From a virus (Duplodnaviria; Caudoviricetes), in the IMG/VR virus record IMGVR_UViG_2627853916_000003, positions 27,868 to 91,867 of that record: a DNA stretch of 64,000 bases. One strand, written 5' to 3'. This document shows, piece after piece, positions 4,753 to 56,028 of the stretch. The position numbers and the translations under genes are program-made. The stretch's first letter is position 1; each line of letters starts with the position of its first letter. The notes below the pieces were generated by a model, which was not told where the DNA came from, made no database searches, and worked only from the letters and a program-made list of their open reading frames with translations.

Positions 4753-6150
4753 CTATGAGTAGTCGTAATTCAGTTGAATTGTTGACGTGCCCACATTCAA
4801 GTAGTGGTAAGTATCAATAGGGATACGGTCAAGAATGCCGACTACCTCAACCTCAAATTCCTTAATGCCTAGTGTCGCGTTGAGGTCTTGGATCACGTCC
4901 CAAATTTGGTTTTTGGTAATGCGCTCATTGCGGCTTGCTTGTTTACCAAATTTCGCATCCAACGCATCGGTCAGTACCTTTGTCGCCCATTCTGGATTTG
5001 AACTTGGATAAAGCTTGCCTTTGACCGTTACGGTAAATGGCACGTCCTTGCGTTCCACCAGCTTATAGCGTTCGTTATAGCCCTCACGGCCAGCGAATAG
5101 ATCTTGGATTTCCTTATTCAAAATCTCGTCGGTCTTATCGGCAGAGTAAGCGCTAATAAAGATCGTGTTGATGTTGCGAACGTCCGGCGTTCCTGTGAGT
5201 TTTTCCTGTTCCGCTTCGCCCCAAATGGACAACCAAGTAACACCCGAAATATTGCGCTTAACAAAGGTCATGTAATCCGAGTCCCACGCAATCTGCTCGT
5301 CATAGATTGGCGAGTAAAGGGCGTTGTTTCGGATAGATTCAATATCCTCCGGCTCTGCACCACCGATAATGCTGGTGGCGGTTTTGATCGCAAGCTGGTC
5401 TTTGTAGGCGCTTTGAATACCCATATCGATGAGCTCTAAAGGCTGCGCATCGAGTAGGGTAGTTACACCATTAGTCAGCCATAGCTCAAACTCAATTACA
5501 TCGCCCGTAGCTGGCGCACGACCGTTATTGTTGTTACCAAAACGAACGCCTAGCTGGTCGGTTGGCTTGTAATATTCCATGTAGGCTTTGGATTTGCCGT
5601 CCGTATTACGAAACTTAAAGACGTGCTCCCACACCTCACCGTTCACGCGCACAATGATGTTATGAATGCGCTTAGTCAGCGCTTGCGGAAATGCAACGGC
5701 TAACCAGTTATGCCCCTCATCGACCGTGTAGGTCATCTTGGACACTTCGAACTGTTGAACCTCTACGGACGCGCTTTCCTGTGGCATAAGATCTATGGCT
5801 TCCATTAGCGTGTAGCGTAATTGGTTGCCAGCAACGCATTGGCTGTATTTCGGCAAGGTAACGCGCTTAGTTCCGGTATTGGTCACTAGCGCACGGCCTT
5901 TCGATGGCGCTGCTTTTCGACCTACATAGCCCTCAGTTTCAGCGCCCGCCAAAATGGAAGTGCGCTTAGTCGCTAACGTCAAATAGGACTCTTGCAAAGC
6001 ACGGCTACTGATCGCTGCCACACGCTCAACAATCTTGGCCACAAACAAGCAAAGGTAGTCAACGAACTGCGAACCAATATGACGCGACCACCAGCTTGAG
6101 CCAGCAATCGCCTCGTTAAAGGTCTTTTTGATTTCTTCTAACTTACTCAA
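4753..6150 (-). CDS. bplA: Baseplate wedge protein (P1 BplA-like, gpJ-type)
   Basis: ESYLTLATKRTSIL and GGAEPEDIESIR motifs typical of baseplate J/gp6-like proteins; synteny. Confidence 0.75.
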   Translation of the reverse strand: MSKLEEIKKTFNEAIAGSSWWSRHIGSQFVDYLCLFVAKIVERVAAISSRALQESYLTLATKRTSILAGAETEGYVGRKAAPSKGRALVTNTGTKRVTLPKYSQCVAGNQLRYTLMEAIDLMPQESASVEVQQFEVSKMTYTVDEGHNWLAVAFPQALTKRIHNIIVRVNGEVWEHVFKFRNTDGKSKAYMEYYKPTDQLGVRFGNNNNGRAPATGDVIEFELWLTNGVTTLLDAQPLELIDMGIQSAYKDQLAIKTATSIIGGAEPEDIESIRNNALYSPIYDEQIAWDSDYMTFVKRNISGVTWLSIWGEAEQEKLTGTPDVRNINTIFISAYSADKTDEILNKEIQDLFAGREGYNERYKLVERKDVPFTVTVKGKLYPSSNPEWATKVLTDALDAKFGKQASRNERITKNQIWDVIQDLNATLGIKEFEVEVVGILDRIPIDTYHYLNVGTSTIQLNYDYS

Positions 6151-6494
6151 AACGTAATACCTCTTTCCAACGTTTGACCGTTCACAACGATCGTCAATTT
6201 GTAGGCATCGATACCGCTGACGTTTGGCTCTACGGCAATGCCGTGAACCACTGCGCCTTTCACGTCTATTGGGAGGGTTAATAGGATTGAGTTTTCGATA
6301 GCTGCTGCTGTGGTTTCGTTTACTGGTTCATGCTTGTATGCCCCTAATCTGTTGCCCCATTGCGGAGCGCCCCAAACTTGGCCTTGAGGTGTATCGAGCC
6401 ATTCAGAGACACGCGCAACGATCGCGTGTTTCTCATCGGCTACTTTTACACCGTCAATATCGACCCGTAGTAAGTAATCAATTTCTTGGCTCAT
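6147..6494 (-). CDS. Baseplate protein, gpW/T4 gp25-like (P1 PmgA-like)
   Basis: WLDTPQGQVWGAPQWG motif; synteny. Confidence 0.7.
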   Translation of the reverse strand: MSQEIDYLLRVDIDGVKVADEKHAIVARVSEWLDTPQGQVWGAPQWGNRLGAYKHEPVNETTAAAIENSILLTLPIDVKGAVVHGIAVEPNVSGIDAYKLTIVVNGQTLERGITF

Positions 6495-6498
6495 TTAT

Positions 6499-9168
6499 CT
6501 ACTCCATATCAGCGCTTTGACGCTGTAACGAACGGTCATCAAAGTTGAGAGGAATAGAGCCACTAGCCTTAGTGGATGACGCTGGCTTGTCTTTGCTTGA
6601 GCCACCGCTAGGCGCTGCAAAGATAGTGGTTGGTTTGGTTGCATCACTGCCGTTAACCGCGCGCCCAATGGCATCCAGTGAATGCTTGCTAAGTTCCACG
6701 GTTTGAGGCTTACCGCTCTCTTTGAGGTCTTTCATCGCTGCTTGTGCTTGCAGCTCGCTAACTCGCTCATTGCGTTGGATGGATGATTGAGTAGCGACCG
6801 TCTTATTCGAGGTGTTTTCGGTATCCACTTTCACCACGGATTGAGTGTCCGTTTTCTGCTTACTTAGCTCGGTATTGATGGATGATTCATGGCTGGCTGT
6901 GGTCACGCTGTTGGTTTGCGTGTTGTCTGCTGCCTTGGTTAGAGCGGCTACCGCCTCGGCCTCTTTGCGGCGTTTGATCTCCGCATCGACGGCGGCCACT
7001 TGCTCGGCTTTCTTTTCTGGCGAGTAGACTTGGCCAAGGTCGGGATGCTCGACCATACCGGACATATCCATGCCCGTTTCCTTGGCCACTTTCACACGTT
7101 TGTCCTGGCTATCTTGCTTTTCGCTTTTCACGGCAAGGTAAGCCTCTTTGTAGCTAATGCCTTGCTCGTTGGCCTTTTGCGCCACCTCCTGAGAGGTCAC
7201 TTGATTTGAGTTTTTCGCATCAAGTTCGCGCATGGCTTTCTCATCACCGGACGCTTTAGCCGTGTGGTAGGCTTCGGCACTCTTAAGGTGTTCCTCTTTC
7301 TCTGGCTTGGCCTTTTTGTCGCCCTCAATCTCGCCGCCAAACAGCTTGTAAATACCCTTGGCTAGATCGCCAGAATCAAAGGTCAACGCTTCCTTAGCGC
7401 CATCAAAACCGAACGCGCCAAGCGCCGAGCCAAGCAAACCAGCACCGCCACTGACTAGACCACCCAAATCAAGCACGTTCGCCAATGCCATTGAGCTTTT
7501 CTGGCCAGTTGTCGCCTCTTGGCCATCTTTGAGGTTGAACGTCTCTTTCTGCTTGTCTTTGTCAGTGAATCCGCTAAACGCATCGTAGGCCATTAAGGCC
7601 GGAGCAAGGAAAGGGATCGCCTTGCCAGCAACAGAGCCGATTTTAGACATACCTTTAAAGGCAGCACCCGCCATCGATACGCCCTTGCTGGCCACGTTTG
7701 AGGCTTTGCTACCAATGCCTGACATAACCGATTTGATTCGGCCACGTTTGCCACCCGCTTTACGGCCAGCACGTCCACCAGCACGGCCACGGCGACGTTC
7801 AAACATATCGCCAGCTAGGTCTAATAGACCGCCTTGGCCATCATTCGCCGCCGCTTTGGTTGCTGAAATCAGATCATCAAGCTTATCCAGTACATCATCG
7901 AACTGGCGTTCGCGGTCAGCGCTGGATTCATGCAATACCTCAAGCATGTTTGCTCGGTAGGTTTGCTCTTTGGTGTTTTTGATCTCGCTAGCTGTGCTTA
8001 TCCGGCTAGAATCGACCCCACCACGATTGACAGACACGTTACCCCTAGCACCATCACGGTTAGGTCGATCACTAGGCGTAATTTGCGTTGAATGGCTTGT
8101 CTCGAACGAATCTTTTGTCGCTGATAGTTGTTCATGGCTAATTGTCTCTATGGCTGTAACGGCCTGACTGTCTGCCTCGGGCGCTTTCTTGCCTCGGGTA
8201 AAGAGTCGGCCTAGTTTCGATTCTTTTAGCTTGTCTTTGGTTGAGGTGGCTTTTTCGGTCACATCATCCAGTGCGTCTTTAGCGTCTTGCCCTAAGTGGT
8301 AAAGCTCTTTAGCGGAGTAGAAGAACGAACCACCCGCCGCAGCGCCAGCCGCATCGGTCGCATCGTTTTCTTCCTGTAGGAACTCTTTCACGTTATTGAT
8401 GGCCAGTTGCTTAAGGCTGGTGGCCACCTTGGCAAAAACGTTCTGGCTTTCCTTTTCCGTGTCGGTTTGCTTTTCAATCTGGCGCTCTAATGCCGTTTGC
8501 TGCGCGTTCTTGTAAGCCGATTGCTCTTGCTTACTCGCATAGCGGCCATCGGAGCGTCGAAGTTTGCCGTTAGCGTCTTCCCAATAGCCCTCAAACTCTG
8601 CCAGTGCGTCAGAGACGGCCTTTTCTAGCTTCTCTGGCACATCATCAAGTATTGAGGTATCCAAACGCTCAGAATTGGATTCTGGCGCTTCTACATTCAC
8701 GACAACAGGCGCTTGTTTAACTGGTTCGCGCGCGACCTCGTTTTTCAGTGTGTCAGCAATAGGCGTAACGGCACTTACAGAGCTGTTTTGCTCGACCGCT
8801 TTAGCATCCGGTTTGGCCTGTGTCTCTGCTGGCTGACTAGGCGCAAATGACAGCTCAATTTCACCTGTTCGCTTGGTCTTGGTTGAGCTGGATTTAGGCG
8901 TTTCACTGGTTTGTGATTTTAATCCTTTTTGTGGATTGTTGCTCGGAATCGCAGAGACGTTAAAAGAGGCATTAGAAACACCCTTAGTCACCGCCTTTTC
9001 GATGCCTTTTGTATCTACAGCAAGGACAGCCTTTTTCTGGTTCGTTGGCAGCGTCTTACCATCGAGTTTACGACTAATCTCAGATAGCACGGCCAGCTCT
9101 CTGTCACTGGCTCGCTTCACTGCATCAACAACCAGCGATAGATCGACCTCTTGTTGATTTTTGTCCAT
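6499..9168 (-). CDS. Tape measure-like protein (P1 Sit position)
   Basis: 889 aa, Ala/Gly-rich and helical with a GKAIPFLAPAL segment; follows the chaperone gene. Confidence 0.7.
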   Translation of the reverse strand: MDKNQQEVDLSLVVDAVKRASDRELAVLSEISRKLDGKTLPTNQKKAVLAVDTKGIEKAVTKGVSNASFNVSAIPSNNPQKGLKSQTSETPKSSSTKTKRTGEIELSFAPSQPAETQAKPDAKAVEQNSSVSAVTPIADTLKNEVAREPVKQAPVVVNVEAPESNSERLDTSILDDVPEKLEKAVSDALAEFEGYWEDANGKLRRSDGRYASKQEQSAYKNAQQTALERQIEKQTDTEKESQNVFAKVATSLKQLAINNVKEFLQEENDATDAAGAAAGGSFFYSAKELYHLGQDAKDALDDVTEKATSTKDKLKESKLGRLFTRGKKAPEADSQAVTAIETISHEQLSATKDSFETSHSTQITPSDRPNRDGARGNVSVNRGGVDSSRISTASEIKNTKEQTYRANMLEVLHESSADRERQFDDVLDKLDDLISATKAAANDGQGGLLDLAGDMFERRRGRAGGRAGRKAGGKRGRIKSVMSGIGSKASNVASKGVSMAGAAFKGMSKIGSVAGKAIPFLAPALMAYDAFSGFTDKDKQKETFNLKDGQEATTGQKSSMALANVLDLGGLVSGGAGLLGSALGAFGFDGAKEALTFDSGDLAKGIYKLFGGEIEGDKKAKPEKEEHLKSAEAYHTAKASGDEKAMRELDAKNSNQVTSQEVAQKANEQGISYKEAYLAVKSEKQDSQDKRVKVAKETGMDMSGMVEHPDLGQVYSPEKKAEQVAAVDAEIKRRKEAEAVAALTKAADNTQTNSVTTASHESSINTELSKQKTDTQSVVKVDTENTSNKTVATQSSIQRNERVSELQAQAAMKDLKESGKPQTVELSKHSLDAIGRAVNGSDATKPTTIFAAPSGGSSKDKPASSTKASGSIPLNFDDRSLQRQSADME

Positions 9169-20316: not shown

Positions 20317-20345
20317 TTGACTGTGTTCGGAATAGGAAATATATT
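20317..20345 (+). promoter_or_regulatory. Sigma70 promoter with operator in spacer
   Basis: TTGACT-17 bp (contains GTGTTCGGAAT at 20323-20333)-TATATT. Confidence 0.75.
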
Positions 20346-20351
20346 ATTTGC

Positions 20352-20473
20352 GTCTACTCGTTCTCCCAAGCGAGTGATGCCAACTGACGTTGAGATACTT
20401 CAATTTACTTCGACTGACAGCCTGACATTAGCTTCCAGTTTCGCCGCGACTCACTTACCTCGCGGCTTTTTTT
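20352..20473 (+). ncRNA. Qrr-like small RNA (about 120 nt)
   Basis: Promoter upstream; 5' hairpin ACTCG/CGAGT; GCCAACTGACGTTG (20379-20392) matches the recalled Qrr conserved core; terminator GCCGCGA/TCGCGGC-T7. Confidence 0.7.
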
Positions 20474-27798: not shown

Positions 27799-27895
27799 GT
27801 TGTGACCTCTAAGCGCGCTTTTTAAGATGGGGAATCTTGGTCAGTTTAACACCATTAACCAAGCTTTTGAGCCTCGTTAATGGTGTTTATGTTAA

Positions 27896-28570
27896 TTAAT
27901 GTTCGGAATGCTTAGGATAAATATTTTCCAGTAGTTCAAGCGGCAATCCCGCCAGCTTATAGACCTTAAACAACAGCTCTATCTCTGTACCGTTGTAGAT
28001 CTTCCATTGCGCCTTACCGCCGTATTTCCCTTTCGCATGGAGCGGTATCATATCTGGATACTGAGCACGCTTATCCGCTTCCAGTAGCGTGTCGTGGTGA
28101 TAACAACACAAGGGTAATACATACGCATGCGCCCGTTCACCAACACGGCCAAACACATGATGTAAGGAAATCACCGGATTCTCTCGGCCATGCAGCCAAC
28201 ACGCAATACATGGTAAGCGGCCAATGGCATCCATGATGCGCCTTTCCTCTGCTGTTGGCGTTCGGCCTTTCAATCCCTTACTGGCGATCTTTTTGGTTGG
28301 TTTCTTCACTACAGGCTTTGCCTTTTGGCGCTCGATGCGCTGTTGCTGTTTGTCACGCTGCTTTTTCTGGTATTCGGGATCATTTAAGCGCTCGATTTGG
28401 CGCTGACGCTGACGTTCTTGCTGCTGTAATTGCTTTTTGAAGCGCTTCTCCCGTTCCTCGGGATCATTCATCTTGGCGATTTGCTTTGCGCGCGCCCGTT
28501 CCATTGATTGTTTTTGCTTCTCTCGTTGTCTTTGAAGTTTCTCTGCTATTGTCAAAGCCATTAAAAACAC
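27896..28570 (-). CDS. ref: Ref-family RecA-dependent HNH nuclease
   Basis: Charged N-terminus then GRTPTAEE...LPCIAC...SLHH...LPLCCYHH. Confidence 0.85.
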   Translation of the reverse strand: MFLMALTIAEKLQRQREKQKQSMERARAKQIAKMNDPEEREKRFKKQLQQQERQRQRQIERLNDPEYQKKQRDKQQQRIERQKAKPVVKKPTKKIASKGLKGRTPTAEERRIMDAIGRLPCIACWLHGRENPVISLHHVFGRVGERAHAYVLPLCCYHHDTLLEADKRAQYPDMIPLHAKGKYGGKAQWKIYNGTEIELLFKVYKLAGLPLELLENIYPKHSEH

Positions 28571-28670: not shown

Positions 28671-28702
28671 CAAAAAAACCGCGTTTATTCGCGGTTTTTT
28701 TG
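28671..28702. terminator. Bidirectional terminator
   Basis: A-run CCGCG-tttatt-CGCGG T-run. Confidence 0.7.
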
Positions 28703-28708
28703 TACCTA

Positions 28709-28897
28709 TCAAAAGTAACTCTCAATCAAAACCCGATGGCATGGTTTGCCCTCATCGTTGCGAAGTCTCTGCCCTAAAGTGACGATCTTCATCAACTTGC
28801 CCTCATAGTCCCAAGGCTGGTTTCGAGTTAAGCACTCTTTGGCTCGTTTAAGTGCTGGCGAGCCAACTAAGAGATAAACGGCCTTTCTAGGTTTCAT
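28709..28897 (-). CDS. Hypothetical protein
   Basis: Start overlaps the stop of the aphA-like gene. Confidence 0.55.
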   Translation of the reverse strand: MKPRKAVYLLVGSPALKRAKECLTRNQPWDYEGKLMKIVTLGQRLRNDEGKPCHRVLIESYF

Positions 28898-29427
28898 GCA
28901 GCGTCCTCCGTAGCAATGCTTGAGGAAGTGATCATTGATAGCGAACGTTCGGCAAACTTAAGCTCTGCTTTACGCATATCAATGTCGCGCTCTACATGCA
29001 GTGTGAAGTTGTCACAGAACACGCCTTTCTCTTTCTGGTGCGCGTTCAGCTTCTCTTTAAGTTGAGTGATTTCTTGATTGAGTTTTTCAATGTACGACTT
29101 GAAGTAGGTCTCGCTGCCGATTTCCAGCATCACCGATGCAGGACAGCGAATGATAGACAGGTCGCGGCACGTAGATTCGTTGCGTAAAAGGTCAAGAACG
29201 CGCTCACCATCTTGAGTTAGTGTGTAATTCTTGCGGTCTGGTTTGCCGTCTTGAGCTTCCAGTTCGTGTGATACTAAGCCCTTTTCAGCCATGCGATTTA
29301 GTTCGCGGTACACTTGCTGGTGGCTGGCTTGCCATGCGCCAGATTCAGGCATGGATTTGTTTGTTAAGTCGTAACCAGTTTGTGTTTTTTGCTCAAGAAT
29401 TGATAGAAGTAGATTACCCAAAGTCAT
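28894..29427 (-). CDS. aphA: AphA-like PadR-family transcription factor
   Basis: TGYDL...WQASHQQVYRELNRM...QDGKPDRKNY closely matches the recalled Vibrio AphA DNA-binding domain. Confidence 0.85.
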   Translation of the reverse strand: MTLGNLLLSILEQKTQTGYDLTNKSMPESGAWQASHQQVYRELNRMAEKGLVSHELEAQDGKPDRKNYTLTQDGERVLDLLRNESTCRDLSIIRCPASVMLEIGSETYFKSYIEKLNQEITQLKEKLNAHQKEKGVFCDNFTLHVERDIDMRKAELKFAERSLSMITSSSIATEDAA

Positions 29428-29443: not shown

Positions 29444-29902
29444 TTATTGTTGCCAAATTTCACCTGAGTCCTCGTCAATAAATCCATGACATAGGTACTC
29501 TCTACTTGTTGAGTAATGCGTAAGTCTTCCCTTTAACGCTTTTTTGTTGCGGTTATGCCAGTGCTCGTATCCGGCAGTAAACGCATATTGGTTATTGTTG
29601 TAATCTGCATAATGCAGATCTGAGCCATTGCGAGCCTCACTTACTCCCGCCGACCAGCTTGCTAGAAAATCGTCACGCTCATTGAGTTTGATGGCTTGTC
29701 GCTCATCATCATGCACCCCAAGTAGCGTGATAATTCCTAGCCCTTGCATGCGGTCAATGACGGTCGTATCGAAATAGCCGATGTAGATTTCATCGTGTGG
29801 GATAAATTCTACTTGTGGTGGCATTTCGTAGACCGTGCCATCTAGCGGTAGAGCTTCCATAAGCTCTATGAGTAGGCTCAACTGGTTTTTTGGAATTGCC
29901 AT
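29444..29902 (-). CDS. Hypothetical protein
   Basis: 152 aa ORF in operon. Confidence 0.6.
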   Translation of the reverse strand: MAIPKNQLSLLIELMEALPLDGTVYEMPPQVEFIPHDEIYIGYFDTTVIDRMQGLGIITLLGVHDDERQAIKLNERDDFLASWSAGVSEARNGSDLHYADYNNNQYAFTAGYEHWHNRNKKALKGRLTHYSTSREYLCHGFIDEDSGEIWQQ

Positions 29903-30149
29903 TGGCCAGCGCCTTGTCTAGTTGTTTAACCACATCAGCGCACATGGAAAAGCGAGGCATTTCATTTCGTATCGCTTTTTCGTCTGCGCCCTCAATAAAG
30001 GCTTTCGCCTCATCTGCACTCCCTAACACCCAACTCACACATACGTTCGCTACCGCGCCAGCGTTGCGGCTAATGGCCATCGATACTGTTGCTCCGTGGT
30101 TAGACAGGACAATAGTGCCTTTGCTGGTATTGAACTTTTTTATGGTCAT
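29790..30149 (-). CDS. Hypothetical protein
   Basis: ORF from MTIKKF, just downstream of the operator at 30170. Confidence 0.5.
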   Translation of the reverse strand: MTIKKFNTSKGTIVLSNHGATVSMAISRNAGAVANVCVSWVLGSADEAKAFIEGADEKAIRNEMPRFSMCADVVKQLDKALANGNSKKPVEPTHRAYGSSTARWHGLRNATTSRIYPTR

Positions 30150-30169
30150 TGGTCGATAATTTATGAACC

Positions 30170-30282
30170 GTGTTCGGAATGTTGGAAAAAAGACTACCAC
30201 AACAAATTTTGGATATGCAACCACTAATTTGCACCTTAACATCAAAATTTTATAGCTCGATAAAAATTTGCGTGTTCGGAAT
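30170..30282 (+). promoter_or_regulatory. Two operators in divergent promoter region
   Basis: GTGTTCGGAAT at 30170-30180 and 30272-30282. Confidence 0.7.
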
Positions 30283-30354
30283 AAAAAGGTGTTGCCATAA
30301 TCCAAAAATGGGATTAGATTACGCCCCAAGCAAACAGTCGGAGCAGTTTAAGAA

Positions 30355-38508: not shown

Positions 38509-38640
38509 GCGTACAAACTCGTAAGGCAAATCTTGGTTTTCTTCCATTGACCTAAGCGGCTGTTCCGTTGGAACTCTCTCCACTTAGTTTGAACAAAAAA
38601 AGCCCCAGCTAATAGCTAGGGCTTTTTTTAGATTCGTTTT

Positions 38641-38859
38641 TTAAGCAAGGCAGACATTAGCCGCTTGCAGGCCTTTCTGGCCTCTCTCAACATTAAATGT
38701 AACCTGTTGACCTTCAATCAAAGTCTTAAATCCATCGGATACAATGGCATTAAAGTGAACAAACACATCGTCACCACCATCACTTTGAGAAAGAAAACCA
38801 AAACCTTTCGATTCGTTGAACCATTTAACTGTACCAGTTGCTTTATTTGAATTAGACAT
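38641..38859 (-). CDS. cspA: Cold-shock protein (CspA family)
   Basis: [14 protein letters not shown] and DVFVHF RNP motifs; long 5' leader; own terminator. Confidence 0.9.
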
Positions 38860-39105
38860 TGTTGTCCCTTATAAAATTAAATTAATTATATCGCAAAATG
38901 CGACGCGCTAAGACATTGAATTATTTAATGATTGGGAACAACTAAGGAGCATTCTAAGTATTGTAACGTAGAGAGGTACAACAAGGAGAGGTTTTACTTA
39001 ATATGAAACTTTGCATTTAATAACTCTGAACAGCAGAGCGGAGCTAGTATTACTCAAGTTGCTTACAATGTAAATGTTTTTTTGACGAATGTCACAAAAT
39101 TTTCT

Positions 39106-43608: not shown

Positions 43609-44238
43609 TTACAGTGCCTTTGGCGTTAGTGAAATGCCTGTTGTGTACTCTTTCGCTTCGTCGTGGAACGTTCTTAGGTAGTGGTCGGTCACAGCAATGC
43701 TCGAATGGCCAAGCGCATCTTTGATGACCTTAAGAGACGCGCCACTGTCCAACAGTAGCATGGCGTACATTTTGCGCATGGAATGTGTTGATAGTTGGTA
43801 TGGCAGTCTCAATTCCATCGCTATGCGCTTATATACACGGTTGATGTACTGGATGCTGATCGCGTTGCCTTTCTTGGCCAAGTGGTGATTGGATTGAAAC
43901 ATCACCTCATTATGGCCATTGTGCAAATAGATACGTCGAATCAGTTCTTCCAGCTCTGCATTAACGTGGATGGTAATGCGGGATGCTTCCTTAGCAGCCT
44001 TTTGGCTCTTACCTCGGGTAATTCGACCGTTATAGCCTTTTGACTGAACAATGGTAAATGACGACTTAATCACGCCATTTATCATCACATCGCTGAATTT
44101 TAGCTTCGAAATGTCGCAGTAACGCAAACCTGTACGCACTTCCATTTCAATCATCATAGAGATAAGCGGATTAATGTCATCCATTAAACGGATTATTTGT
44201 TGTAACTCGTTTAAGTCACGCGCAGGGAAAGCAGCCAT
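43609..44238 (-). CDS. Tyrosine recombinase (catalytic domain only)
   Basis: TGLRYCDI, HSMRK, LGHSS and TDHY: complete catalytic set. Confidence 0.92.
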   Translation of the reverse strand: MAAFPARDLNELQQIIRLMDDINPLISMMIEMEVRTGLRYCDISKLKFSDVMINGVIKSSFTIVQSKGYNGRITRGKSQKAAKEASRITIHVNAELEELIRRIYLHNGHNEVMFQSNHHLAKKGNAISIQYINRVYKRIAMELRLPYQLSTHSMRKMYAMLLLDSGASLKVIKDALGHSSIAVTDHYLRTFHDEAKEYTTGISLTPKAL

Positions 44239-44696: not shown

Positions 44697-45030
44697 TTTT
44701 TGCTGATCCTTTTTGGCGGTACACCATTGTTTGCTTGCTAAGTAATATATTCCTTTGGAATATCATTTGCAAGCCTGTTCGGAATACTTCACTTGAAAGT
44801 ACAAAGAGTTTCAAAAGTCGCTATTTCGTCGCTTTTTGATACAAAACACAATAAAGAACAAAATACCACCAGCAACATGTGGTTTTTATCGAATATTCCT
44901 ATGGAATATATGGGATTCCGCACACGAAATGCCAGGATTGGACTGAACAAGCAGAATAAGCCTAAGTGACTGTTTTTATTATGTTTTACTGTTTTTGTGT
45001 GGTGCTGGTGGCTTTAAAAGACGTGATAAG

Positions 45031-45062
45031 TTAGTTTCAGTTCCATGCAGAACTGAAACTAA
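45031..45062. other. lox-like site, copy 2 (perfect 13-bp arms)
   Basis: TTAGTTTCAGTTC-CATGCA-GAACTGAAACTAA, at the P1 loxP-equivalent position between recombinase and coi/c1. Confidence 0.6.
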
Positions 45063-45215
45063 AAGGGTGTTTTTAAAAACATGCGACTCCAATTACCCAC
45101 TTGTGGCAATATAATGACAGAGTTACACCGTCACGCGACACGAACAAAACTGCATACCCACACTCATTATGCGGTATGGCTCACGTTATGAAACCTTTCC
45201 AGTGAGTAACGATAC

Positions 45216-45235
45216 AGTTGCATTATTTTGCATAT
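45216..45235. promoter_or_regulatory. Candidate AphA box
   Basis: AGTTGCA-TTATTT-TGCATAT, 12/14 to ATATGCA-N6-TGCATAT. Confidence 0.45.
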
Positions 45236-45723: not shown

Positions 45724-46629
45724 TTGGAGCAACCGTTCACCATGATTAATAAATTAAAGACTAAAATTAAAGATCCCAAACCTATTGATATAGATACACT
45801 TAATCAACTTCTTGCAAATAAACAAACGGCTGATGCTCGCCTTAAACGTGCCTTGAAGCACCGCGCGACATTTTCCGAACAAATTGATGGTAAGGAAGAT
45901 AGTGGACTATTCAATGATCGTATCGTAGCTGTAGTAAAACGTGGCAATCCAACCACTCGTTTACTTGAGTATATTGATGCCGCTAAAGCTGCAAATCAGG
46001 AGCTTTTAGAACGCGCGCCTCAATACTTCAATAGCTCATCTAACTCGTTTAAAGAGACAACCGTAATTGATAACGTTCGTCGCGTTAATATCACAATCAA
46101 TAAAGCTGCAAGCAGCCAAAAAATGACTGGCGCTCGCCTAATTAAACGCCTTGAAGCGTACTTACGTGATATTGACCGACAACTCTCTTACGAATTGCCA
46201 GAAGATGAGTTAGAACAGCTTAATAAGAACAAAGCTGACGCTCTGCGCGAACTGGACTACTTCCAAAAACATGCAGACGTTGAATTTAGAAAACGTGGCC
46301 AAGAACACAACGATATTGTTGCCATCATCCATACCTTTAATGGAAATGACGACACTGTATCGCGTGTAGCGAAAAAGGTTCACGTTAACGCTGGTGGCCT
46401 TGTCGTTATTAGGCATCGTTCTTGTAAAGATCACGATGTGCTAATCACGAACAACACCACTGAGGGACGCTCGATATTTGATGAAGCTAATTCATTCAAA
46501 TCCGTGCTTTACCCAACGGCTACCATGTACATCGAAAGCGAACTAAACGCGATTAGAGAATCCAGAAAAGAGCTAAGAAGTAGAAACGAAAACAAAGCCC
46601 GTTCGCAGTTCGACGGCTATGTTAACTAG
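45724..46629 (+). CDS. c1: P1 C1-like primary repressor
   Basis: Convergent with pacB as in P1; NVRRV...MTGARLIKRL, FRKR and SIFD..YP segments resemble recalled P1 C1. Confidence 0.7.
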   Translation: MEQPFTMINKLKTKIKDPKPIDIDTLNQLLANKQTADARLKRALKHRATFSEQIDGKEDSGLFNDRIVAVVKRGNPTTRLLEYIDAAKAANQELLERAPQYFNSSSNSFKETTVIDNVRRVNITINKAASSQKMTGARLIKRLEAYLRDIDRQLSYELPEDELEQLNKNKADALRELDYFQKHADVEFRKRGQEHNDIVAIIHTFNGNDDTVSRVAKKVHVNAGGLVVIRHRSCKDHDVLITNNTTEGRSIFDEANSFKSVLYPTATMYIESELNAIRESRKELRSRNENKARSQFDGYVN

Positions 46630-50859: not shown

Positions 50860-51412
50860 GATTTTGAGGAGTTGTCAATAACAGGTAATTTCAATAACCA
50901 ATGGCTTCGCCATCTATATCTGGAGTTATCCACGTCCATTTCTTGCGAGCAAGGTAAATATAGGACACCGAAAACGGCTTTTCAATAGGTTGAAACGCGA
51001 CACATACTGCAAACAAAAAAAGAGCCAGTATCTCTACCAGCTCTTTGACTCTCTTTTGCAAACCTACTTTGAATCACTTGCCGAAGTTTTACACTCCAAC
51101 ACGAAACAGGGCAATTATATTGATACTTACCTTGAAAAATCAACAAAAAAAGCGCCGATGGCATAACCAAGGGCGCTTAAGATCAGCTGTCTAAGATTTT
51201 AAAGGAAAACACGGTCGTCACAATGGCAACTAATGTAACTCGCGTATGAATAAATTTAGCCGTTCGGAATAAACAGTTCAAGTATTTTTTCACTACCTCA
51301 CTCTCTCTTGTTCGATTTGAAATGCTCGTCACTATCTTGATTGATACTTATTGCTGGTCAATGGCTCTAGGTGCATCATTGTGCATAGCGGTTAAGGTTT
51401 TGGAGTACAACA

Positions 51413-52408: not shown

Positions 52409-52759
52409 TTAATCAAATAGGGAGTCAGCGCCGATTAGTGGTACAAGACGAAGTAAAACATCCTCCATAACTCCACTTTCAGCGGTGGCAATCTTTTTGG
52501 CTTTGCGATCTTTCCAAGATAGGGTTTGGACTAAGCTAGAAGCGACCACGCAGGGTTTATCTAGGTTGTTTACAGGAACTTCCGTTGCTTGGCCGCGAAT
52601 ACTGGTGCTAATAGGGCAGCAAATGAGTAGTCCTGTTTGTTGGTTGTATTCTTTGCTGGAAAGCACTAGCGCAGGACGGTACTTGCCAATTTCCTTTCCC
52701 TTTGTTGGCTCAAAGTCGAGCCAGATAATATCGTTTCGTTTAGGAATAAACTGCGCCAT
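52409..52759 (-). CDS. mazF: MazF/PemK toxin
   Basis: DIIWLDFEPTKGKEIGKYRPALVLS. Confidence 0.92.
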   Translation of the reverse strand: MAQFIPKRNDIIWLDFEPTKGKEIGKYRPALVLSSKEYNQQTGLLICCPISTSIRGQATEVPVNNLDKPCVVASSLVQTLSWKDRKAKKIATAESGVMEDVLLRLVPLIGADSLFD

Positions 52760-53440: not shown

Positions 53441-53504
53441 CGGTATATTAATCTCATTCCGAACACAGCACAATATTAGTTTATAAATTCACTTTTGATA
53501 TTGC

Positions 53505-55997: not shown

Positions 55998-56028
55998 ATT
56001 CCGAACACGCCGTAAACATTCCGAACAC
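55998..56028 (-). promoter_or_regulatory. Tandem operators overlapping promoter
   Basis: ATTCCGAACAC at 55998 and 56018; TTTACG-16-TATAAT on the minus strand. Confidence 0.75.

Follow-up and report, generated by a model that had tools for sequence, protein, structure and literature searches.

AphA is the master regulator of the low-cell-density state in the quorum sensing of the Vibrionaceae, and it controls biofilm, motility and virulence genes in Vibrio parahaemolyticus, V. alginolyticus and related species. We know of no ligand for AphA. In this work we describe an aphA-like gene that is carried by a virus (record IMGVR_UViG_2627853916_000003), an element of about 92 kb that we read as a phage-plasmid. 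The window that was analysed is the 64,000-nucleotide stretch from base 27868 to base 91867 of this 91,867-bp record, which is rated 93% complete. Judged from its sequence, the gene is best explained as encoding a dimeric transcription factor of PadR subfamily 1, from the AphA-like branch, on a P1-like Vibrio phage-plasmid.

A good comparison is vibriophage VP882, which is likewise a plasmid-like phage of Vibrio with a diverged copy of a host quorum-sensing transcription factor, VqmA. The phage VqmA is said to be a ligand receptor that triggers lysis via an antirepressor, and a small open reading frame (ORF), qtip, reportedly adjoins vqmA. A small ORF also adjoins the regulator here. It differs in being, by prediction, co-transcribed with the regulator, and it is missing from distant relatives.

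The family to which the gene belongs is already in the literature. An in silico study in Environ Microbiome 2026 (PMC13670528), together with its preprint, describes a Vibrio prophage-encoded AphA homologue of the family phrog_13512. That gene ('prophage.8') is flanked by genes for a Ref-like endonuclease and a tail protein, its product is 34.8% identical to host AphA, and the analysis there comprises a tree of 34 sequences and homodimer models from AlphaFold3. The prophage.8 and MAR10 homologues of that study belong to the same family as the protein described here, prophage.8 is probably from the same phage lineage, and the prophage.8 gene has its closest homologue in V. alginolyticus. A second article lists a phage-borne aphA among biofilm genes (PMC11295528). 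The existence of the gene and its kinship with AphA are published results, and the copy described here is one more member of the family. The available portions of PMC13670528 contain no dispersed operator, four-gene unit, small RNA (sRNA) with a Qrr seed, spread over several lineages or comparison of contact residues. The present work adds the transcription unit and its terminator, a genome-wide operator shared with an sRNA that carries a Qrr seed, the confinement of the family to several phage lineages of the Vibrionaceae, the identity of the DNA-contacting residues with those of host AphA, and the purifying selection on the gene. Our full-text search left out about 1.7 million PMC articles and most subscription journals. 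Within this scope phrog_13512 is mentioned only in the study above and its preprint, the term 'Qrr-like' gave no match, and the matches listed include no functional study of a phage-encoded AphA or Qrr.

The original prediction placed an AphA homologue with a winged helix-turn-helix (wHTH) domain at its N-terminus and the motifs ASHQQVYRELN and GKPDRK at positions 28894-29427. The minus-strand reading frame is confirmed, with 177 codons for amino acids and coordinates that are exact including the stop codon, and the two motifs lie at residues 34-44 and 61-66. The Pfam family PadR (PF03551) matches residues 7-78 (E 4.2e-15, 55.9 bits, cut-off 27), which identifies the product as a PadR protein; in NCBIfam the PadR models match below threshold only. 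The profile of phrog_13512 matches over its full length, with residues 4-173 on profile positions 8-177 of 178 (E 2.8e-70). Against four relatives, the ratio of non-synonymous to synonymous substitution rates (dN/dS) is 0.13-0.19 by an in-house Nei-Gojobori script, which is a sign of purifying selection and rules out a pseudogene or relic. In one relative (L007) the gene has a stop codon four codons early.

Proteins of PadR subfamily 1 have two domains, a mass of about 19-22 kDa and long C-terminal helices (PMC5728393). This two-domain architecture is found in the phage protein, both in an AlphaFold2 model and in a Foldseek search with that model. The model, built from an alignment of 80 family sequences, has a predicted local distance difference test score (pLDDT) of 94.5 and consists of the wHTH followed by helices at residues 96-103, 106-134 and 140-176. 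The Foldseek alignments span 174-180 columns. V. cholerae AphA (1yg2) is matched with template modelling (TM) scores of 0.74/0.77 at 28% identity, and the DNA complex of Bacillus subtilis PadR (5x11) with TM 0.73-0.76 at 19-22% identity. VanR (21-22% identity) has the same fold, and PadR and VanR both bind DNA through Tyr/His residues of helices 2 and 3 plus the wing; unlike them, the phage locus has no adjacent detoxification gene. The modelled fold is that of PadR subfamily 1, and AphA is pointed to by the sequence only. The best sequence match in the PDB is AphA (1yg2, E 2e-20, residues 1-133), and B. subtilis PadR comes second (E 5.9e-9), eleven orders of magnitude behind.

The genome scans agree with this. 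The closest homologues (84-95% identity) are all from V. parahaemolyticus, V. alginolyticus or V. diabolicus where a species is named. Next in rank among 185,579 species genomes come chromosomal AphA proteins from Vibrio, Enterovibrio, Grimontia and Photobacterium, which are 32-37% identical across residues 1-160 to 1-168 and about 50% identical within residues 1-78. A convenient reference is V. diabolicus G001, the natural host of a 92%-identical copy of the regulator gene. In a global alignment with its AphA the N-terminal domain is identical at 42/85 positions (49%) and the C-terminal domain at 22 of the 73 aligned positions. Compared with AphA in general (1yg2; V. parahaemolyticus VP2762), the phage protein has the same two-domain architecture and nearly the same length (177 versus 179 amino acids); it differs in a shorter C-terminal domain, in its separate clade and in its location on a phage-plasmid instead of the chromosomal aphA locus.

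Two trees place the protein beside AphA and outside it. When 1.84 billion representatives were searched exhaustively with HMMER, 1061 matched at E<=0.001, 87 of them at E<=1e-10, and the top ranks are proteins of 165-190 amino acids aligned over their full length, above AphA-type proteins aligned mainly in the N-terminal domain. A FastTree phylogeny of 185 rows was built from representatives of 140-240 amino acids, three close homologues, four viral loci and 36 of 80 genome loci (hand-picked, at least 130 amino acids). It splits (support 95) into a side of 85 rows with the window protein and a side of 100 rows, the latter with 12 Vibrionaceae AphA rows and cellular PadR subfamily-1 proteins of many phyla. 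For an IQ-TREE phylogeny of 80 hand-picked rows, the long-branch rows of the first tree were left out and MAR10 and the V. diabolicus AphA were added. Here the window protein falls in a clade of 25 rows, all of the phage family (support 99/95), together with phage MAR10 and the viral contigs L003 and L006. Between the phage side and a clade of 28 other cellular PadR subfamily-1 rows (81/85), the AphA rows make up an unresolved grade, and it is at this Vibrionaceae AphA grade, apart from the generic PadR clade, that the phage family connects to the remaining tree. At the base of the phage side sit two chromosomal proteins with unresolved placement, of which one is from Gallibacterium. The tree is unrooted, so the direction of descent between the phage family and AphA is not readable from it.

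Sequence and tree position both make AphA the closest cellular relative of the phage protein, yet the two are not orthologues. Among nine vibrios, AphA orthologues share at least 84% identity (PMC3440409), whereas the phage protein is 33-37% identical to Vibrionaceae AphA and stands in a separate clade in both trees. Nor is it the single chromosomal gene that an AphA orthologue would be: G001 carries a chromosomal AphA (87% identical to P0022) and a separate phage-plasmid copy (38%), and in 10 records the gene lies on plasmids of 93-217 kb. A recent capture of a host aphA is ruled out by the same identity of 33-37%, by the separate clade and by the unchanged position of the gene in distant P1-like relatives. 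The predicted homology with AphA accordingly holds as nearest kinship in the PDB search, the genome scan and the tree, though for a separate and deep phage clade; the grouping with generic PadR proteins that would have spoken against it is not seen. The two motifs fared less well as markers of AphA. Both are the consensus of the phage-family alignment and of the cellular PadR subfamily-1 alignment alike, and are therefore not diagnostic. The phrog_13512 profile also matches all 80 phage-side and all 64 cellular relatives, bona fide AphA included (E 8.6e-32), and therefore does not discriminate between the phage family and AphA.

The C-terminal half was predicted to be divergent, and this is borne out by the 22/73 identities against 42/85 in the N-terminal domain and by the lack of a match to PF10400 (Vir_act_alpha_C), the AphA-type C-terminal domain. 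The domain is diverged yet homologous, with a homology detectable only when profile is aligned with profile. When the phage family is compared with the AphA/cellular alignment in hhalign, the two align over 165 columns (probability 100, E 9e-50), and the phage C-terminal domain lacks about 16 residues between its two long helices. PF10400 is found in 7/80 members of the phage family versus 56/64 on the AphA/cellular side. With its diverged and shorter C-terminal domain, the phage protein would form homodimers of its own. A dominant-negative role, in which mixed dimers with host AphA through the C-terminal domain inactivate or retarget AphA, strikes us as most improbable. The two proteins do share the PadR subfamily-1 fold that dimerizes through this domain (PMC5728393, and the AlphaFold2 model), and the domains are homologous at profile level. 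That said, the few identities, the roughly 16 missing residues and the undetected PF10400 fit insulation from AphA better, and the homodimer model with the C-terminal domain of a close relative is confident (interface predicted TM score 0.81; PMC13670528).

The distribution of the family is strongly skewed towards one group of hosts. A tblastn search of 50,697 phage records finds 93 that match, 91 of them Vibrio phages and two Listeria phages, all less than 60% identical; 40/93 cover at least 80% of the 177 residues. Besides the phage-plasmids, the matching phages fall into genome-size classes of about 76 kb (SSP002/MAR10-like), 50-52 kb, 57 kb and 82-85 kb. Of 19 phage-side clusters that were looked up, eight are named. 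All eight come from Vibrio or Photobacterium, and contigs of 60-96 kb are frequent among them. The sequence comparisons define a family that is large and old, and is found almost only in phages and phage-plasmids of the Vibrionaceae, in at least five phage lineages. At the DNA level, a megablast of the locus against the phage collection gave no match, and the locus is present at 86-92% identity in 10 complete Vibrio plasmids of PLSDB (93-217 kb, all typed non-mobilizable) from V. alginolyticus, V. diabolicus and a Vibrio sp. The six plasmid records examined are all of replicon type rep_cluster_803, and one related plasmid is a 93,384-bp circle with the gene order of the window.

The residues that read DNA can be compared directly. 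In B. subtilis PadR the operator is contacted by Y20, H38, S39, Q40 and Y42 at the bases, by W34 and K37 at the backbone, and by K64, L65, K67 and K68 of the wing (PMC5728393). The same positions in the phage protein are Y19, H36, Q37, Q38 and Y40, then W32 and S35, then K62, P63, R65 and K66, and host AphA has the identical amino acid at 11/11 of them; even the base-contacting Ser39 of PadR is a Gln here, as in AphA. Because of this identity it is reasonable to think that the phage protein reads AphA-type half-sites, perhaps among others. We tentatively propose, at short of even confidence, that it would act on host promoters with AphA boxes and so impose or distort the low-density programme. 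Its targets would be the AphA-box promoters of aphA, opaR/luxR, qrr and the low-cell-density regulon, and the programme would be imposed or distorted independently of host cell density, possibly with the help of the sRNA described below. The spread of the family across unrelated Vibrio phages (91/93), which have the host family in common, points in this direction.

Several observations weigh against this proposal. The contact residues are also the consensus of PadR subfamily-1 relatives outside AphA, cyanobacterial and actinobacterial ones included, so identity with AphA at these positions is not AphA-specific. In the structure search B. subtilis PadR is level with AphA. PF10400 is not detected in the protein at E 0.01, and because it is missed here and rare in the family, the geometry of the dimer, and hence the spacing of its half-sites, may differ from that of AphA. 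The family is deep and fast-evolving: in two P1-like relatives the regulator shares 38% identity where its flanking genes share 46-70%. It is not obvious that a protein that strictly mimics a highly conserved one of the host should evolve in this way. Finally, the authors of PMC13670528 only speculate, in the available text, about an effect of their homologue on the lysogenic switch or on quorum sensing.

The AphA box is a 20-bp dyad, ATATGCA-N6-TGCATAT (PMC3440409). It is not enriched in the window, with 2 matches at up to 3 mismatches versus 3.4 expected. The two AphA-box-like sites, 45216-45235 and 51369-51388 (plus strand, 2 and 3 mismatches), are intergenic and alike at 15/20 bases, and the first is conserved in two close relatives; they are a weak lead, and a motif derived from them has no further exact copies. 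The control region of the regulator's own unit holds no AphA box. A search at up to 5 mismatches gives 3 places, which are 6 matches when each strand of the dyad is counted, versus 2.7 matches in shuffled sequences. The box of OpaR is matched nowhere in the window at up to 3 mismatches, nor at up to 7 in 29903-30354. With neither box upstream, the known feedback wiring of AphA and LuxR is not seen at this locus.

A second explanation is that the protein is a repressor or activator internal to the phage, aimed at its own four-gene unit, at the divergent rightward operon or at a step of the switch between plasmid and lytic states. It may then respond to a small ligand held between its domains, as PadR and VanR do, and its likeness to AphA would be shared ancestry only. 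We regard this as possible, if rather doubtful. Most PadR subfamily-1 proteins with solved structures are local, ligand-responsive repressors (5x11, 5z7b, 6lg2; PMC5728393), and the family is old and separate from AphA. The place of the gene next to Ref and tail genes is constant in distant P1-like relatives, as for a backbone gene: the viral contigs L003 and L004 keep the order phrog_8101, regulator, Ref, phrog_1837, baseplate wedge and tail protein, with the regulator 38% and the flanking genes 46-70% identical. There is also a candidate site in the divergent control region, an AT-rich inverted repeat of 11 nucleotides (30243-30253 / 30260-30270, 91% complementary), but upstream of the L003 copy no counterpart is found. 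Within the window, none of the 6-mer dyads occurs three times or more, which gives no sign of a phage-internal regulon, and what the at least five unrelated phage lineages share is the host family, not promoters. A further point against it is the 137-kb plasmid L097 (NZ_CP046774.1), where orfA, phrog_8101, the 62-residue ORF and Ref are in pieces and the regulator is intact at 85% identity. The survival of the regulator where its partners have decayed also counts in favour of action on the host. In the same plasmid, positions 1-1950 and 4800-7000 hold diguanylate cyclase and phosphodiesterase genes beside tail genes.

The regulator belongs to a leftward unit of four genes, in the order orfA, phrog_8101, aphA-like gene and 62-residue ORF, with a terminator at its end (Table 1). 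Its promoters were assigned by eye, and these assignments are weak. The best-conserved gene is phrog_8101, which is 70% identical in L003/L004; orfA is not annotated in the related plasmid records and has a 33%-identical counterpart at the same place in L003. The ORF of 62 residues is kept in close relatives under a dN/dS of 0.10-0.12, is absent from L003/L004 and, as described above, is broken in L097. A protein atlas search with phrog_8101 and with this ORF returned nothing usable. The 142-nucleotide gap that holds the terminator has a minimum free energy of -42.7 kcal/mol (z -4.0), and 0/200 shuffled sequences fold as well; a simple terminator scan did not flag the hairpin. Since the terminator ends the unit, the Ref-like nuclease gene lies outside it. 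As an aside, the overlap of orfA and phrog_8101 in different frames has the same length in the window (29790-29902) and in L003 (5426-5538). There is a run of A just after the start of phrog_8101, and the overlap could be true, could point to a later real start, or could mark a frameshift site.

Table 1. Positions in the window of the regulator gene, its neighbours and the associated control elements
Feature	Positions	Strand	Description
sRNA unit	20317..20470	+	Promoter TTGACT-N17-TATATT with operator in the spacer (20323-20333); predicted transcript of about 119 nucleotides; terminator
Ref-like RecA-dependent nuclease	27896..28570	-	Downstream neighbour beyond the terminator; P1-like backbone marker
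Intrinsic terminator	28671..28702	-	Two-way design (A-run, G+C stem, U-run), directly after the 62-residue ORF
62-residue ORF	28709..28897	-	ATG start and aphA-like stop codon overlap as ATGA; no known family
aphA-like gene	28894..29427	-	PadR subfamily-1 regulator of 177 amino acids (phrog_13512); wHTH about 1-85, three-helix C-terminal domain 96-176
phrog_8101	29902..29444	-	152 amino acids, function not assigned; directly upstream of the aphA-like gene
orfA	30149..29790	-	119 amino acids, probable first gene; overlaps phrog_8101 by 113 nucleotides
Operator copy 1 (GTGTTCGGAAT)	30170..30180	+	Part of the leftward unit's leader; 20 nucleotides separate it from the start codon of orfA
Operator copy 2	30272..30282	+	Between the divergent promoters

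The two operators predicted at 30170 and 30272 are real, and they are part of a family that is dispersed over the genome. The 12-nucleotide sequence CGTGTTCGGAAT is exact at 30169 and 30271. The 11-nucleotide sequence GTGTTCGGAAT has 12 exact copies in the whole 91.9-kb genome and 10 in the window (19119, 20323, 30170, 30272, 34642, 45618, 53456, 55998, 56018 and 62941). With up to one mismatch the window holds 15 copies versus 1.07 expected, and 0/100 shuffles reach 15. Several copies immediately follow a -35-like hexamer within the spacer of a sigma-70-like promoter and point the same way as transcription; examples are TTGACT-[operator]aggaaa-TATATT at 20317 and a tandem pair before TATAAT at 55998/56018. 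The second copy of Table 1 is just upstream of a rightward extended -10-like element, TGcCATAAT (30293-30301, by eye). The picture of an operon headed by the two operators needs some revision, as both are on the plus strand, the orientation of the rightward operon, and the leftward unit stops short of Ref.

The element GTGTTCGGAAT is asymmetric, and no second half-site stands at a fixed distance in its 10 exact copies. The operators of the C1 repressor of P1 are dispersed and asymmetric too, and because of this similar dispersal we infer that GTGTTCGGAAT is the predicted site of the main repressor of the phage. If so, expression of the four-gene unit would be absent or low while the element is a plasmid, and would be released on induction or infection. 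A candidate for the repressor is the ORF of 301 amino acids at 45724-46629, which lies beside the terminase genes, presumably the position of c1 in P1. It gave a weak match to phrog_1678 only and no tblastn match in phages.

It is very unlikely that the AphA-like protein itself is the repressor that binds the dispersed copies of GTGTTCGGAAT and so controls about a dozen promoters of the phage. Near two of the copies, no other DNA-binding regulator could be recognised, and no C1-like protein has been identified, the 301-residue ORF included. The site is a poor fit, however, being an asymmetric 11-mer where PadR dimers bind dyads of about 16-20 bp (PMC5728393, PMC3440409), and L003 and L004 keep the gene with no copy of the operator in the 11.5-12.5 kb around it.

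One of the promoters with the operator belongs to the putative sRNA, which the original prediction called Qrr-like. Its unit lies in a 250-nucleotide gap between minus-strand genes, with a near-consensus promoter, and the predicted transcript has a 5′ hairpin. It contains GCCAACTGACGTTG, 14 consecutive bases that are identical in all five Qrr RNAs of V. diabolicus G001 and lie inside an invariant stretch; the chance of such a match anywhere in 92 kb is about 0.01 by rough arithmetic. In the window an Rfam search detected no Qrr, either at the gathering score or with E values up to 10. A whole-genome search with the Qrr model (RF00378) gave one match of 13.4 bits versus a gathering score of 50 (E 0.5-9.6). 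Control genomes also give such weak matches, and the five Qrr genes of G001 score 81-113 bits. Qrr genes have promoters of the sigma-54/LuxO type, instead of which the sRNA has a sigma-70-like promoter with the phage operator. When five related plasmids are aligned, 11-12 of the 14 seed bases are kept. The sRNA is not a member of the Qrr family, but it may mimic the Qrr seed. What stands of the prediction is the 14-base seed common to 5/5 host Qrr RNAs and the shared operator; family membership does not. The suggested co-occurrence of sRNA and regulator across genomes was found, in the same 10 plasmids and at 70-73% identity for the sRNA locus, and it adds nothing because the carriers are one phage lineage. 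RNAduplex runs of the sRNA against the host aphA leader and phage leaders were uninformative, as the pairing of host Qrr with the host aphA leader itself does no better than shuffles.

The same GTGTTCGGAAT operator stands in the sRNA promoter and at the aphA-like unit, and this sharing is a further point in favour of action on the host. It raises the idea of a low-cell-density mimic in two parts, in which a homodimer of the AphA-like protein would act on host AphA boxes and the sRNA, through its Qrr seed, on mRNAs of the opaR/luxR type, both under the phage master operator instead of LuxO. On induction or infection the host would then be switched to 'low density' whatever its real density. The gain might be, for instance, that receptors stay up while quorum-induced defences stay down. 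We consider this two-part form of the proposal unlikely.

The rest of the element fits a phage. The genes near the regulator encode a Ref-like RecA-dependent nuclease, baseplate and tail proteins, the small and large terminase subunits and a tyrosine recombinase. The label P1-like comes from the names of these families set against the P1 gene map, and is a reading of gene content instead of a direct comparison with P1. At 45031-45063 lies a palindrome of about 33 bp that has matches on both strands in related phage records and in a distant relative; it adjoins a tyrosine-recombinase ORF (43609-44238, minus strand, phrog_216), and together they look like a pair of the lox/Cre type. A second palindrome, ATATTCC-N3-GGAATAT, occurs at 44747-44764 and 44893-44910, beside operator-like sites with one mismatch. 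Both copies are in the 1-kb gap before the 301-residue ORF, which may be an immunity region. Two further loci stand out. At 38596-39042 (minus strand) there is a full-length match to the 5′ untranslated region of the cspA thermoregulator (Rfam RF01766, 96.8 bits versus a gathering score of 78), and the phage-plasmid seems to carry a cold-shock-type gene plus its RNA thermometer. The ORF at 52409-52759 (minus strand) matches a family of MazF-like growth inhibitors (phrog_1936, E 1.3e-23) and lies downstream of the operator-bearing promoter at 53456.

Phages are known to listen to the quorum signals of their hosts, as VP882 does with its VqmA. Supplying the output regulators of the low-density state would, if true, go further and overwrite the host decision. 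A working mimic would change how the behaviour of a strain is read from its genome, in a group where phage-plasmids are common (10 complete ones in PLSDB). If the two-part mimic were true, it would be a general anti-quorum strategy of Vibrio phages, given that the family is spread over at least five of their unrelated lineages. If instead the regulator acts on phage genes only, it would be an ordinary phage PadR regulator with an interesting ancestry.

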